A DNA stretch of 64,000 bases from Candidatus Woesearchaeota archaeon (GCA_964599615.1 CAZRGF010000005.1:6829-70828); one strand, 5' to 3'. Numbered from the stretch's first letter, positions 47,514 to 52,346 are shown. A program made the numbers and translations. Notes: generated by a model not told the origin, from the letters alone.

Positions 47514-47900
47514 TTAAGGATTATATTTTTTTAAATAACCCTCTGCTATGCCTGAAATTCCTTTGTCCTTTTTTGCAATTTCGAGAGCTTGTTTTACTTC
47601 ATCTGAATGGTATTTGCGGTCATGAGCTGCTAATGCACAAGCTGCTCTGAATTTAGCGTAGGGATTAGAGTCATCTTTCATAACATAATATAATCTTTCT
47701 TTCATTCCTGAAGTTAGGGCCTTAGTCTTTTCAAGAATACTCGCTGCCAAATCTCTGACATTATCTTTGAGGTGTTTTAACCCTTTTTTATATGCCCATT
47801 CAACATAAGTTTTTTTATTGCATATTTGAGGGATAGTTCTATCTACTAATCTCCAATCTTCATTTTTAGCTGCGCTGATTAAATCATCTAGTTTTGACAT
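47514..47900 (-). CDS. HEAT-repeat-like protein
   Basis: Repeated helical hairpins (DNVRDLAASILEK and NPYAKFRAACALAAHD). Confidence 0.5.
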   Translation of the reverse strand: MSKLDDLISAAKNEDWRLVDRTIPQICNKKTYVEWAYKKGLKHLKDNVRDLAASILEKTKALTSGMKERLYYVMKDDSNPYAKFRAACALAAHDRKYHSDEVKQALEIAKKDKGISGIAEGYLKKYNP

Positions 47901-47982
47901 GATATTTGTATGTGTATAACTTATTTTTATATTTTGTGTTCAAGTCTTTATTGTCCAATCTTAGTTACAGAATTTATGGTTT

Positions 47983-48714
47983 TTATACTTTTTTCCACAA
48001 TAAATCAAAGTATCCCCTGTAAGAATCTGCAATCTCCTTGTTTTTTATTAAAAAAGAGATGGGATATTCAAGAGAAACTAGAACAATGGCGACATAATCG
48101 CCAAAAATCCAAATTGTCTGGGGGTTTTGCATTTCTTTAGGAAGGAATTTATGTTCAACATATTTCATTTTCTTATGTTCTTCAAATCTTTTTTTCCCTT
48201 CTTCTGTGTTCGCTACAAGAACTTTGTAAGAAATTTTTAGTTTTTCTCGCTTTTTTGTCCAAGATTCCATAAAATAAGGTAAGACTAATGGGCCCTTTCC
48301 TGTACTTCCAATAGCAAACCATTCTTTCTTTTCTTTTAAGATTAGTTCCATGATTGTTTTCAAGCCTTCTTTTCCCTCATAAACTTCTGCTTTATACTCT
48401 GGCTTGATTCTTTCAAATTTTTCCTTCAAATCAGGCATCAAATCTCTGATTTCATTTTCTCTTTCTTTTAAAATATCTAGAATTTTTTCGGGGCTTGAAG
48501 CTTGAAAGTATTTTTTACCTGTTTTTATAGTATAACTCACAAGGCCTTTCTCAATTAATCTATTCAAGGCGTCGTAAACAGGCCTTCTATGTAATCCTGT
48601 TTTTTTTGCTAAATCGCTTGCTAAGCAAGAACCCAAGTTAAGCAAATTCAAGTATGTTTTAGTTTCATTTAAAGTGAAACCCAGTTTTTCTAGTGTTTCT
48701 TGTATTGTTGGCAT
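47983..48714 (-). CDS. TrmB-family transcriptional regulator
   Basis: LGFTLNETKTYLNLLNLGSCLASDLAKKTGLHRRPVYDALNRLIEKGLV. Start moved to the internal ATG (MPTIQETLEKLG). Confidence 0.8.
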   Translation of the reverse strand: MPTIQETLEKLGFTLNETKTYLNLLNLGSCLASDLAKKTGLHRRPVYDALNRLIEKGLVSYTIKTGKKYFQASSPEKILDILKERENEIRDLMPDLKEKFERIKPEYKAEVYEGKEGLKTIMELILKEKKEWFAIGSTGKGPLVLPYFMESWTKKREKLKISYKVLVANTEEGKKRFEEHKKMKYVEHKFLPKEMQNPQTIWIFGDYVAIVLVSLEYPISFLIKNKEIADSYRGYFDLLWKKV

Positions 48715-48775
48715 GTTAAGGGAGATGTTGTTTATTTTTGGTTTATTGATAAGTATTACATAATGCACTTATAAC

Positions 48776-48791
48776 TGGTTGTGAACAACCA
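48776..48791. promoter_or_regulatory. palindrome TGGTTGTG-AACAACCA in the trmB / radical-SAM operon divergent region
   Basis: 7 of 8 arm positions are complementary. Possible TrmB operator. Confidence 0.3.
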
Positions 48792-48970
48792 AATTTTGCT
48801 GTTCTGCGCTTCGCTTTCCATAAAATACAGGTTTAAGGCCCGTTACAAGGACAACTTTGTTATTCCGTTTAAGTTCCTTAGGGTTTTTATATTTTGTGTT
48901 GTGTGGTGCTAATTGGAACCGCAATGATTTAATAACTCTGTTTTTCTGTAGTTACTATTAAGGAGATAAA

Positions 48971-49399
48971 ATGCTATTCACATTTGCAAATTCGATTGAT
49001 TATGATACATCATCTACCCCTCACCCAATATCTGTGTCTAGTCATGTAATCTATAGAATAAAGGGAGATAAGCAAAGAGCTAAAGAAATTTACGATGAGA
49101 TTTATGACAAATTCATAAAACCTCTTAGACCAATACGAGATAAAATGCAGTATAGTCATGACTTCATCGAAGATAGGGAATACACCTGGTCTGATGATCC
49201 ACATGGCCATTTTCCAATTAAATGGAATTATGTTCAACAAGTGGGTGATGAAACTTATGTGGCATACTCTCTTTTTAGACGCGAACTTCCTATGTTGGAT
49301 AGAATAATTTTTTGTGAGAAACTTGAACAAGTTTATGAAATTAAACTTGGCAGATTTTGCCGAGAAATTGGTGATAAGAGAAAAGTGGAGGAAAAATAA
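48971..49399 (+). CDS. hypothetical protein with N-terminal FxFAxxxDYDxxxTPH motif
   Basis: AAGGAG lies 6 nt upstream. Sequence begins MLFTFANSIDYDTSSTPHP... Confidence 0.6.
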   Translation: MLFTFANSIDYDTSSTPHPISVSSHVIYRIKGDKQRAKEIYDEIYDKFIKPLRPIRDKMQYSHDFIEDREYTWSDDPHGHFPIKWNYVQQVGDETYVAYSLFRRELPMLDRIIFCEKLEQVYEIKLGRFCREIGDKRKVEEK

Positions 49400-49400
49400 A

Positions 49401-49919
49401 ATGTCCTGGTTTGTATTTGCTGACCCCCCAGATTATGACGATGATACCCCCCATATGGGATATACTCGGAATTACACTCCTGAAGAAATTGCTAAACAAA
49501 AAAAGGAGTTAGAAGAGTCAGAAAAGGAAACAGAAGCAGGCGAAAGATTGATTAGTCTGATTATGATCTTGGGATTCATAGAATGTCTTGGGCTTACTTG
49601 CCTTATATCCAAATGTAGTAATGCACACACTACTCAAAAACATAACATAAGCTATCCTGTAAAAAGTGTGGAATGGGTTAGAGAGAGTCATGATGGAACA
49701 CATCTTGAAGCACAATACTTCGAAAACGGAATTGAAAGAACACTGTATTGGGGTGGTCATCCCGATAAAATTTCACGAATGGATACTTTATCCTCAATTT
49801 CTGAACCTGAAGTAAGTCTAGATTCTACTTGCACCTATAAAACAGACCCCTCTGAAAAAATAAGGCATTTTACTCTTAGACTTCCACAGGGTTATGTTAT
49901 AAGGAGGGTGGAAAGATAA
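49401..49919 (+). CDS. hypothetical single-pass membrane protein with the same N-terminal motif
   Basis: Internal ATG preceded by GTGGAGG. MSWFVFADPPDYDDDTPHMG..., with TM segment LISLIMILGFIECLGLTCLI. Confidence 0.6.
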   Translation: MSWFVFADPPDYDDDTPHMGYTRNYTPEEIAKQKKELEESEKETEAGERLISLIMILGFIECLGLTCLISKCSNAHTTQKHNISYPVKSVEWVRESHDGTHLEAQYFENGIERTLYWGGHPDKISRMDTLSSISEPEVSLDSTCTYKTDPSEKIRHFTLRLPQGYVIRRVER

Positions 49920-49920
49920 A

Positions 49921-50043
49921 ATGACGATCCAAATAACAAATGACAAGGAAACTGAATCAGAAAAAGTGGAGAAACCACTTGAAGATAATGGGAAGTTGTT
50001 TAAGATAAATTTTGAGAAGGAAAATGAATATAACTTTAGTTGA
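49921..50043 (+). CDS. hypothetical 40-aa acidic peptide
   Basis: Not in the track. AAGGAGGG upstream. MTIQITNDKETESEKVEKPLEDNGKLFKINFEKENEYNFS overlaps the radical SAM start. Confidence 0.35.
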   Translation: MTIQITNDKETESEKVEKPLEDNGKLFKINFEKENEYNFS

Positions 50044-51463
50044 AACAAATAACCCTAACTGGGAATTTGGGGTTTATACTAGAAATAGGGGTTTAGACCC
50101 AATTTCTATTGGTTATATTGGGGCTGCTGCAAAGCAAGATGGACATAGAATAACCCTGATTCAACAAAGAGAAGAAGATTTAGAACAACTTACTGAGGAA
50201 ATTTTAGCAACAAAGCCGGATATTGTTGGATATAGTTGTATGACTTTTACTTCTGATTTTGCATTGACATTAGCAAGAAAAGTTAAGTCTAGAAAAAAGG
50301 TTGTTAATGTTGGTGGCGGTTATCATTTTTCTGCAATTGCTGAGCCAGATGTCAAAACACAATTAAAAGATTCTTGTTTAGATTATGTGGTTCTAGGTGA
50401 GGGGGAAGAATCATTTAGAGAACTAGTTAGTTGTTTAGAGAGTAAAGAAGATCCAAGAAATGTGAATGGAATTGCAATTAATGAAGGGGGCGAATTTGTT
50501 TTAACTGGACCAAGAAAAAGACTAACTATCTTAGATCAATTGCCTTGGCCAATTAGAATAAGAAAATATCTTGAAGGCACATTTATCAAGGGGGTCTGTG
50601 CTCCAACTAGCGAACAAGTTTGTGCTGCGCAAGTTTCATATTCAAGGGGGTGTGTTAATTCTTGTTCTTATTGTGCCTCTCCAACATTGTGGGGGAATAC
50701 AATTTCTACTCGTTCTGCTCAAGATACATTAAATGAAATTGAATATCTAATCAAAGAATTTGGGACAAATTCTCTTTTTTTTACTGATTTGACTTTTAAT
50801 CGTAGCAGAGAAAAAGTATTTGAGTTATGCACAGAATTCAAAAAAAGAGATTTAAATGTTGGGTGGTATGCAATGTGCAGACCAACTCCTGATGAAGAAT
50901 TATTCAAAGACATGAAATCTGCAGGATGTAACAAATTAGCTATAGGGATAGAAGCTTTAAGAGATACTACACTTAGGGATTATCATAGAAGACAGACAAC
51001 GCAGCAAACACTAGAAACTTTGAGAATTTTAGATAATCTAGGAATAAGTTCTAGGGGATATCTTATTATTGGTTGGCCTGAAGAGGATTGTGTTGGTTTA
51101 AATGATTTTATAGATAAAAACTCAAAAGTCTTAGTCCAATACGCTGAAGCAGGATTGGACATGTTAAGACTAAGTTTTTTAACCCCATTTCCAGCTTCTA
51201 CATTTTATAATACTTGTAAGGAAAATGATTTATTTTTAACAAAAGATTTTTCAAGATTTACTAGTAGTGAGCCAATTTTAAAATCAAAACTTAATCCAGC
51301 AGAATTACTTGAAGCAAGGCAAAGGTTATTCCAGGCATTTTTTGAATCTGAAGAATATTCTGCTAGTATAAGAAGTAAATTTGAAAGATTTCCTCAATTT
51401 AGAAAGCCTTTCACAGAATATTTCGCAGAATTAAAAGAAGTAGGGATAAATGTTAAGGTTTAG
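50024..51463 (+). CDS. B12-binding-domain radical SAM enzyme (class B)
   Basis: N-terminal Rossmann-like B12 domain (ISIGYIGAAAKQDGHRITLI, DIVGYSCMT). SRGCVNSCSYC is a CxxxCxxC cluster. The alternative start 50012 is possible. Confidence 0.85.
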   Translation: MNITLVETNNPNWEFGVYTRNRGLDPISIGYIGAAAKQDGHRITLIQQREEDLEQLTEEILATKPDIVGYSCMTFTSDFALTLARKVKSRKKVVNVGGGYHFSAIAEPDVKTQLKDSCLDYVVLGEGEESFRELVSCLESKEDPRNVNGIAINEGGEFVLTGPRKRLTILDQLPWPIRIRKYLEGTFIKGVCAPTSEQVCAAQVSYSRGCVNSCSYCASPTLWGNTISTRSAQDTLNEIEYLIKEFGTNSLFFTDLTFNRSREKVFELCTEFKKRDLNVGWYAMCRPTPDEELFKDMKSAGCNKLAIGIEALRDTTLRDYHRRQTTQQTLETLRILDNLGISSRGYLIIGWPEEDCVGLNDFIDKNSKVLVQYAEAGLDMLRLSFLTPFPASTFYNTCKENDLFLTKDFSRFTSSEPILKSKLNPAELLEARQRLFQAFFESEEYSASIRSKFERFPQFRKPFTEYFAELKEVGINVKV

Positions 51464-51474
51464 GGGAGAATAAA

Positions 51475-51729
51475 ATGACTTTCAAAGATTTTTATGAAAA
51501 AAAGATCATAGCAGGCGTTTTCGCATTTGCTTCTATGCAATCTTTAGTGGGATATTATCTTATGTATACTTATCGAGGTACACCCCTTGACTTGAGTGGG
51601 CAGATATTGTGGGGTACAGGATTTGCGGTTTCTTCTGGATTAGGTCTTCAGATGTGTAAAGTAGTTATGGATCAACAGAGTGAGATATCCGATTTAGTAA
51701 AGAAACTTTACAAAAAAGAGGAGGACTGA
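51475..51729 (+). CDS. small two-TM membrane protein
   Basis: GGGGAG upstream and two hydrophobic segments. Confidence 0.5.
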   Translation: MTFKDFYEKKIIAGVFAFASMQSLVGYYLMYTYRGTPLDLSGQILWGTGFAVSSGLGLQMCKVVMDQQSEISDLVKKLYKKEED

Positions 51730-51744
51730 AGGAGATTATTGAAG

Positions 51745-52257
51745 ATGACCATCAATGAAAAAATAAATCAACTTTTAAAAGAAAGATTTGATCAAATTCG
51801 ACAGAAGCAGATGAAATATGAAGAAGAAATAAAGGCTAGGGCAATGCAAAGTAGAGAAAGAAGGGAGTATTTAATTAAAGAAGCTCAAAAATGTATAGAG
51901 ATACTGGAAAAAGTAGCAAAAAGGAGTGAGATAGTAAATTACTCAAAAGAATTTGGGCCAGTTAAACTTGTTAGATTATGTAATAATCATTGGTTTTTTG
52001 CAGAGTTTGGAGAAATATTCAACTGTTCTGATTATGACGCTAGTTTTAGAGAAGGTTCACGTTACATGCTCTCAAAGAATAATGATCGTCAGGCTTCTTG
52101 GGGTTATGGCGGGATTACAGAAGATGATTTAAAGAGATTAGCTTCATTAGATGAAGAAACTGCACTTCTAGCGGTTTATTATAATTTGGGAGAAGTTGGT
52201 GGTCTGAAAACAGAACTTTCACTTGAACAAAAAAGGAAAATCAAACCATACCTATAG
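51745..52257 (+). CDS. hypothetical protein (coiled-coil N-terminus; contains CSDYDASF)
   Basis: ATG lies 10 nt after AAGGAG; the track start 51739 is TTG. Confidence 0.55.
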   Translation: MTINEKINQLLKERFDQIRQKQMKYEEEIKARAMQSRERREYLIKEAQKCIEILEKVAKRSEIVNYSKEFGPVKLVRLCNNHWFFAEFGEIFNCSDYDASFREGSRYMLSKNNDRQASWGYGGITEDDLKRLASLDEETALLAVYYNLGEVGGLKTELSLEQKRKIKPYL

Positions 52258-52346
52258 ATGTATAAAGAGAGTTAAATGTTTTCAAGAAAACATTTAAGTA
52301 GTATTTTTCATATAACTTTTTACTAAAAACGAGGCAAGTTTGAATC

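Follow-up and report, generated by a model that had tools for sequence, protein, structure and literature searches.

The class-B radical S-adenosylmethionine (SAM) enzymes, which combine a radical SAM core with a cobalamin (B12)-binding domain, are hugely expanded in small-genome archaea of the phylum studied here, and a substrate is known for almost none of them. A B12-like domain is also present in AprD4, yet this enzyme acts as a dehydratase without methyl transfer. On the regulatory side, TrmB of the Thermococcales represses sugar operons at a palindrome laid out similarly to the one described below. A few homologues of the lipid methylase Gmm have been reported in DPANN archaea (PMC11214058). 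The locus analysed here belongs to a stretch of 64,000 nucleotides (nt) from Candidatus Woesearchaeota archaeon (GCA_964599615.1, CAZRGF010000005.1:6829-70828), hereafter called the window, which is part of contig C5 in an assembly of 1.32 Mb (89% complete, G+C about 32-33%; the genomes of relatives measure 0.3-1 Mb, which suggests an archaeon of the DPANN type). Positions 48971-52257 of its plus strand are tiled by six open reading frames (ORFs) located downstream of a divergent TrmB-family gene: P1, P2, an acidic ORF of 40 amino acids (aa), a class-B radical SAM enzyme, a protein with two transmembrane segments (2-TM) and P5. An earlier note on this DNA had interpreted an N-terminal motif shared by P1 and P2, hereafter the tag, as a recognition or modification site for the enzyme. 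The explanation preferred here, which is held with moderate confidence and is drawn from sequence comparison, is that the locus would be a locally repressed and evolutionarily mobile cassette, made of a regulator and a class-B radical SAM enzyme, in which five species-specific ORFs (ORFans) have been captured.

The conserved core of the cassette comprises two genes, the TrmBL2-like regulator and the divergent B12-domain radical SAM enzyme. Seventeen enzymes were examined, namely that of the window and 16 homologues originating from 13 loci, and a divergent TrmB-family gene lies beside 13 of them (the window, L014, L015, L016, L029, L030, L031, L032, L069, L071 and three pairs in genome G021). 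The four enzymes devoid of a regulator of their own are the second copy of a tandem in L030 and three copies located beside ATP-binding cassette (ABC) transporter genes in L070 and L072. Identity to the window in this cassette comparison ranges from 41 to 78% for the regulators and from 38 to 52% for the enzymes. The enzyme directly follows the regulator, with no gene between them, at six other loci, and no gene resembling P1 or P2 is found at any of the 13 loci holding the 16 homologues. The same slot is occupied in L016 by a different 172-aa protein, which is secreted. Scanning 247,000 six-frame residues around homologous enzymes (14 loci) revealed no tag-like string; the earlier note had expected the motif to accompany homologues of 50024-51463, and its absence there counts, by the note's own reasoning, against that proposal.

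The distribution of the ORFans is narrow. Only self-matches were obtained for P1 and P2 among 5.8 billion proteins, an exhaustive phmmer search of P1 against 1.84 billion representatives returned repeat artefacts only, and 200 genomes belonging to the same order yielded no credible match to either protein. P5 displayed no homologue in these genomes, where matches were limited to weak coiled-coil alignments (E at least 0.002). No domain was identified in the ORFans using Pfam, NCBIfam, PHROGs or PADLOC, the 84-aa 2-TM ORF in particular having no match in Pfam, PHROG or PADLOC; a defence-system or phage origin was considered and discarded, as PADLOC and PHROG gave only generic weak matches. The operon is present with 100% DNA identity on three metagenome contigs from other samples, namely ERZ27248961, JGI 3300028298 and SRR8437217. 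We propose that this species alone added the five ORFans to the transcription unit: P1, P2 and the 40-aa ORF came to separate the enzyme from the ancestral leader, and the 2-TM ORF and P5 follow the enzyme. Another enzyme, 35% identical (L071, 3848-5004), is separated from its regulator by two ORFs of 155 and 214 aa unrelated to P1 and P2; this observation indicates that the slot between leader and enzyme captures genes repeatedly.

The regulator carries a TrmB helix-turn-helix (HTH) domain (PF01978, 53.2 bits for a cut-off of 25.6), and a profile built from 13 orthologous regulators aligns over its full length with the shorter TrmBL2 (5box, E 7.7e-4) and, through the HTH, to TrmB (3qph, E 7e-10). 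A sugar-binding C-terminal domain was not detected: the NCBIfam TrmB and TrmBL1 models cover residues 2-114 only, with 34-42 bits for cut-offs of 600-650, and neither Pfam nor NCBIfam returned any match beyond the HTH. All the divergent intergenic regions (13/13) display a palindrome flanked on either side by an A/T-rich TATA-like box. The clade of the window shares an invariant GTGGTG-N-ACC, and the palindromes of other clades read TGTCGT-N8-ACGACA, GCTGTAAAT-A-ATTTACAGC or TCTCCAATATTGGAGA; as the half-sites differ between regulator clades, the palindrome covaries with the regulator. The three regulator/enzyme pairs of G021 (loci L073, L074 and L075 on one contig of 0.7 Mb) are separate and each is provided with its own palindrome. 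The palindrome at 48903-48922 has no second copy within the window, and a looser version of the pattern has no other copy at any intergenic promoter of the genome. The regulator would bind this candidate operator and block both promoters until released by a ligand, which could plausibly be the substrate or the product of the enzyme. Since the leader box is identical in L016, P1 lies directly after the ancestral promoter and leader, and the position of P1, P2 and the 40-aa ORF between leader and enzyme suggests their co-transcription under the control of the regulator.

Two further observations concern the regulator. A metagenome contig from another sample (JGI 3300028298, L037), otherwise identical to the window, bears a 31-bp deletion at 48476-48506 that splits the regulator into ORFs of 76 and 151 aa, and part of the population may run the operon unrepressed. 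In the window, about 145-165 bp separate the TATA-like box of the regulator from its ATG, and this stretch (48715-48880) includes GC-rich mini-hairpins at 48776-48791 and 48827-48843. L016 and L029 lack this stretch, the box being found there about 22-24 nt from the ATG of a regulator that looks leaderless; the stretch may correspond to an inserted small repeat element.

The boundaries of the island are apparent from a genome of the same genus (G001, locus L091), in which about 100 bp separate alaX (77% identity) from the oxidoreductase gamma-alpha gene (82%). The two genes, which are divergent and have nothing between them, define an empty site, relative to which positions 47514-52257 of the window constitute an insertion of ~4.8 kb. 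The gene order in L016 is alaX, TrmB, 172-aa protein, radical SAM enzyme and oxidoreductase. From this comparison, the island lies between the alaX and 2-oxoacid:ferredoxin oxidoreductase genes, and the ORFans appear as later additions. The cassette is considered mobile on an evolutionary scale because it forms an island here and exists in three copies in another genome. The leftmost gene of the island, a 128-aa ORFan with a sub-threshold HEAT_2 match (Pfam, E 0.04), has no counterpart at the syntenic L016 nor in G001. As a side observation, a single 186-aa ORF of L016 (368-928) joins the N-terminal ~48 residues of AlaX to a KaiC/RecA-like ATPase domain (PF06745) and may be a chimeric or rearranged gene.

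Table 1. Position of the genes and candidate signals of the island, numbered from the first nucleotide of the window.
Feature	Coordinates	Strand	Basis or remark
128-aa ORFan, leftmost island gene	47514..47900	-	ORF; faint HEAT-like match
TrmBL2-like regulator, 243 aa from ATG 48714	47983..48714	-	TrmB HTH; presumed local repressor
TATA-like box TTTTTATAT	48884..48892	-	Position kept in 6 aligned loci; presumably serves the regulator
Imperfect palindrome GTGGTGCTAATTGGAACCGC, 20 bp, candidate operator	48903..48922	.	GTGGTG and ACC invariant in 6 aligned loci
TATA-like box ATTTAATAA	48927..48935	+	ATTTA(T/A)TAA kept in 6 aligned loci; presumably serves the operon (P1 to P5)
Leader box GTAGTTACTATTAAG	48948..48962	+	Directly before P1; identical in L016, recognisable in L014 and L030
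P1, soluble ORFan, 142 aa	48971..49399	+	Tag residues 3-18 = nt 48977-49024
P2, ORFan, 172 aa from ATG 49401	49401..49919	+	Tag residues 4-18 = nt 49410-49454
Acidic ORF, 40 aa	49921..50043	+	20-nt overlap with enzyme start
B12-binding-domain radical SAM enzyme (class B), 479 aa	50024..51463	+	Domains; C210-x3-C214-x2-C217
2-TM ORFan, 84 aa, two hydrophobic segments	51475..51729	+	ORF; cluster size 1
P5, ORFan, 170 aa (172 aa from TTG 51739)	51745..52257	+	N-terminal half charged, helical
Perfect 10-bp hairpin AAATGTTTTC aa GAAAACATTT, then T-run	52274..52309	+	Read from sequence; inside an inverted repeat

The six ORFs of the operon are separated by 1-15 nt or overlap, and each start codon is preceded by a GGAG-type site at a distance of 4-14 nt. 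The anatomy given in the earlier note, with six same-strand ORFs behind Shine-Dalgarno-like sites, the overlapping acidic ORF, the two-TM protein and a single membrane segment in P2 (a hydrophobic helix at residues about 62-82), was recovered with the same coordinates and lengths. In-frame codon-usage scores are alike for P1, P2, the 2-TM ORF and P5 (0.21-0.27 per codon) and for the TrmB gene (0.22); the lowest of the operon is that of the 40-aa ORF (0.135), which is called by gene finders on the three metagenome contigs and has a cluster size of 1. P2 is annotated at the NCBI as a 190-aa form in which the motif would no longer be N-terminal, and the 172-aa form is favoured because GGAGG precedes ATG 49401. 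Single-sequence AlphaFold2 models were too poor for use in the case of P1 (predicted local distance difference test, pLDDT, 50.8) and too poor for a fold search in the case of P2 (pLDDT 56.4, one long helix at 27-73). The hairpin and T-run 3' of P5 are the probable end of the transcription unit.

The tag follows the pattern F-x-F-A-x3-DYD-x3-TPH in P1 and F-x-F-A-x3-DYD-x2-TPH in P2. The exact expression with x3, which the earlier note had attributed to both proteins, matches P1 only, and it is the spacing rather than the resemblance that had to be corrected. Aligned with a one-residue gap, the two N-termini share 9 identities in 16 columns with a score of 44, which is reached by 9 of 40,000 random pairs of N-termini from the same genome (about 2 in 10,000). 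With P2 as the query against the 1344 N-termini of the genome, P1 ranks best and the runner-up scores 31. When the 1.32 Mb genome was translated in six frames, relaxed versions of the motif matched P1 and P2 and nothing else. Synonymous codons differ between them at 5 of the 9 conserved residues; the tag was therefore kept at the protein level and does not result from a recent DNA copy. These data indicate that the tag is real, non-random and maintained by selection. The remainder of the two proteins differs as previously described, BLASTP finding no further similarity outside the tag, which most likely originated from an old tandem duplication whose other parts would have diverged beyond recognition. 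The string FNCSDYDASF of P5 was considered as a third copy and rejected: DYD occurs in 56 of the 1344 long ORFs of the genome, one further occurrence among the other ORFs is for this reason unremarkable, and the inclusion of P5 in the shared motif is not sustained.

It could be argued that the ORFans are young, endowed with little or no function, or even mis-called, the tag being a relic of duplication or a captured fragment of a synthetase HIGH region and the enzyme working alone, as it does for most cassettes. This reading, which is regarded as unlikely, agrees with their confinement to one species-level population, with the absence of domain matches and with the low confidence of the structural models. 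It could also draw on residues 4-38 of P2 (49410-49514), which align without gap over 35 residues to the HIGH-motif region of isoleucyl-tRNA-synthetase-like genes, with 43% identity in G029 (FYFLDGPPYANDVPHVGH...) and 32% in G039 (loci L022 and L023; E 8.8e-4 per genome, about 200 genomes of the order having been searched). A class-I aminoacyl-tRNA-synthetase origin of the tag was nevertheless rejected, since it relies on one marginal alignment without Pfam profile support and since the isoleucyl-tRNA synthetase of the organism itself reads FLDGPITANNPMGVHH; the resemblance is probably due to chance. Furthermore, at 33% G+C chance is a very unlikely source of ORFs of 142 and 172 codons, the exact tiling, the ribosome-binding site of each ORF and a codon usage similar to that of the neighbouring genes are at odds with spurious calls, and the synonymous differences within the tag argue for selection.

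The class-B assignment of the enzyme was borne out by profile searches: the B12-binding (PF02310, residues 25-135, N-terminal) and Radical_SAM (PF04055) domains score 58.4 and 71.9 bits for Pfam cut-offs of 32.1 and 29.5, respectively, the motif CVNSCSYC is present, and C210, C214 and C217 are invariant across 32 homologues. About 40 homologues display 32-52% identity. A profile of the enzyme family retrieves among solved structures AprD4 (6fd2, E 2.4e-34), TsrM (6wte, 7e-23), TokK (7kdx, 9e-23), OxsB (5ul2, 1e-19) and CysS (9n1b, 1e-17). In contrast, the scores against all NCBIfam equivalogs (lipid, bacteriochlorophyll, hopanoid, phosphonate, RiPP, i.e. ribosomally synthesized and post-translationally modified peptide, and methyl-coenzyme M reductase (MCR)-modifying) are far below cut-off, as illustrated in bits by TIGR04072 (129.8 for 360), BchE (129 for 481), HpnJ (101.7 for 578), HpnR (101 for 650), PhpK (103 for 600) and BzaD (90.8 for 450). 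The enzyme most likely performs a cobalamin-type radical reaction, for which methylation would be the class-B default.

The orthogroup is rare: when an orthologue was searched against 401 genomes of the class, E 1e-80 was attained in just 2 of them. B12-domain radical SAM matches at E 1e-60 are by comparison found in 159 of 401 genomes of the phylum, often several in each. A phylum-wide profile search yielded distant paralogues only (21-31% identity), which have neither TrmB nor nadA neighbours and are not informative on the orthogroup. In many genomes of the phylum these paralogues lie physically clustered, and a genome of ~1 Mb can hold as many as 36 first-look candidates; G460:C15, G344:C4 and G035:C7 are examples of such clustered expansion.

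The gene accompanying the pair varies from one cassette to another. The start of nadA overlaps the stop of the enzyme in L014, L029 and L030, where it is located 3' of the enzyme and its product passes the NadA equivalog cut-offs; these loci fall in two clades of the enzyme tree. The third gene encodes a CitE/HpcH-like lyase in L069 and a lipase-like protein in L071. In G021, it encodes a cyclodipeptide-synthase-like protein (TIGR04539, 34.1 bits for a cut-off of 45), and another pair of that genome is preceded by a gene for an NMT1/THI5-type binding lipoprotein. Elsewhere, the pair is accompanied by the secreted 172-aa protein, by an AbrB-like ORF of 47 aa or by nothing. Given this variation in the co-encoded third gene, the enzymes of different cassettes probably act on different substrates.

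Taken differently, the same neighbours could mean that the enzyme acts on a small molecule (cofactor, lipid or metabolite) which P2 and the 2-TM protein would deliver or export, with pyridine/NAD chemistry through nadA as a particular version. In addition to the nadA overlap in two clades, this rather improbable alternative is favoured by the genome of L029 (G708), where nadA lies beside the enzyme and a search for nadB, nadC and aspartate dehydrogenase found none of them, by the large NAD gene array of the window itself, 5-25 kb away (its nadA, nadB and nadC form a separate array at about 27-35 kb), and by the fact that the best family matches of the enzyme are small-molecule enzymes. All these matches are however far below their equivalog cut-offs. 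G021, with its three cassettes, contains none of nadA, nadB, nadC or aspartate dehydrogenase, and the third genes are too varied for a single pathway. The NrtR-type palindrome of the neighbouring NAD array, which was tried as a candidate operator and rejected, is absent from the operon promoter, and no evidence connects P2 or the 2-TM ORF with transport. The nadA link is real for part of the family and is not general; where quinolinate synthase stands alone, its coupling to a B12 radical SAM enzyme may point to a two-enzyme step not described so far. No paper linking TrmB, nadA and B12 radical SAM enzymes was found in the literature.

The proposal of the earlier note, a protein or RiPP-like modification, must be weighed against the same data and is likewise estimated to be improbable. 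The enzyme would recognize the tag shared by P1 and P2 and alter a residue within it or close by, through C-methylation for example, and the cassette enzymes would be maturases with the neighbouring protein as the client. The tag is statistically significant, unique in the genome and kept at the protein level, and P1 and P2 lie immediately 5' of the enzyme in one unit coupled by Shine-Dalgarno-like sites behind the regulator-controlled leader. The tree places the enzyme of the window as the sister of that of L016 (support 94/92); between these two loci, the enzymes are 1.26 and the regulators 0.28 substitutions per site apart, which puts the evolutionary rate of the enzyme in these lineages about 4.5 times above that of the regulator, and L016 harbours a different inserted protein. 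The enzyme belongs to no clade of known function. Across the family the adjacent gene varies and the enzyme stays, and archaeal class-B enzymes acting on whole proteins do exist, the corresponding model TIGR04014 (methyl-coenzyme M reductase glutamine C-methyltransferase) giving a weak match to the enzyme of the window. On the other hand, neither the tag nor relatives of P1 and P2 are found in any homologous cluster, six loci have no gene between regulator and enzyme and some have no third gene. No RiPP recognition element (RRE), SPASM domain, peptidase or exporter was found, and the RiPP models score far below cut-off. Proteins of 142 and 172 aa with a motif at the extreme N-terminus are unlike leader-core precursors, and P2 contains a membrane helix. 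The shared motif, the enzyme class and the operon context that inspired the proposal are upheld; the conservation of the motif near homologues and the RiPP hallmarks are not.

A generalization would present the TrmB-coupled B12 radical SAM cassettes as dedicated protein maturases, each modifying the product of the adjacent gene and here acting on P1 and P2 by way of the DYD/TPH tag. This is judged slightly less likely again; if true, whole proteins of a small-genome archaeon would be modified by B12-type radical SAM chemistry in a context other than methanogenesis. Under the preferred explanation of a regulated cassette with captured ORFans, the tag most likely serves the species-specific accessory proteins as a common element for interaction or targeting, rather than being the ancestral substrate of the enzyme, because every other family member examined works without such proteins.

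A number of points weigh against the preferred explanation. The four known copies of the operon show no DNA differences and hence no polymorphism informative on selection in the ORFans. The best-matching solved structure is that of AprD4 (6fd2), and cobalamin binding is not readable from sequence. The duplication origin of P1 and P2 is deduced from the tag, as BLASTP finds nothing else in common. Finally, the fast divergence of the enzyme coincides with different inserted genes in each lineage and also fits a lineage-specific protein partner.

The cassettes define a rare sub-family by a signature that can be tested, namely a TrmBL2-like regulator of their own and a palindromic operator that changes with it, and the ligand of this regulator should point to the substrate of the enzyme, which provides an experimental handle. 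The tag of P1 and P2 is itself a rare case of a short motif visibly under selection between two otherwise unrelated ORFans; being confined to one species population, it is of limited general importance unless it proves to be a target of the enzyme.

Among the described systems, the RiPP C-methyltransferases (TIGR03975 rSAM_ocin_1, ApyD and the PoyC type) resemble the window in that a B12-type enzyme follows short to medium ORFs with a common motif. The enzyme of the window scores 95 for a cut-off of 281.85 with TIGR03975 and 90.8 for 750 with ApyD, Pfam recognized B12-binding and Radical_SAM alone in the enzyme and no domain in its neighbours, there is no RRE, SPASM, leader-core layout, protease or exporter, and the conservation of the enzyme does not extend to its putative substrates. 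The MCR-modifying methylases (TIGR04014) are also archaeal B12-domain radical SAM proteins and, as they act on a folded protein, provide the nearest precedent for a client, but the window enzyme reaches only 66 bits for a cut-off of 360 and has no link to methyl-coenzyme M reductase. The ring synthases GrsA and GrsB and the methylase Gmm are archaeal B12-binding radical SAM proteins as well; they were compared by way of the lipid model TIGR04072 only, with the score given above, and the cassette contains no lipid biosynthesis gene. With the class-B enzymes TsrM, TokK, CysS, OxsB and AprD4, the window enzyme shares the N-terminal B12-binding Rossmann-type domain and the CxxxCxxC core; it differs from them by reaching no NCBIfam equivalog cut-off, by its rare orthogroup and by its partnership with a TrmB-like regulator. 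This regulator is in turn similar to TrmB and TrmBL2 in its TrmB HTH, in its full-length alignment to TrmBL2 and in the position of the palindrome between promoter elements, with the difference that each paralogue is here paired with a radical SAM gene of its own and with a distinct half-site sequence.

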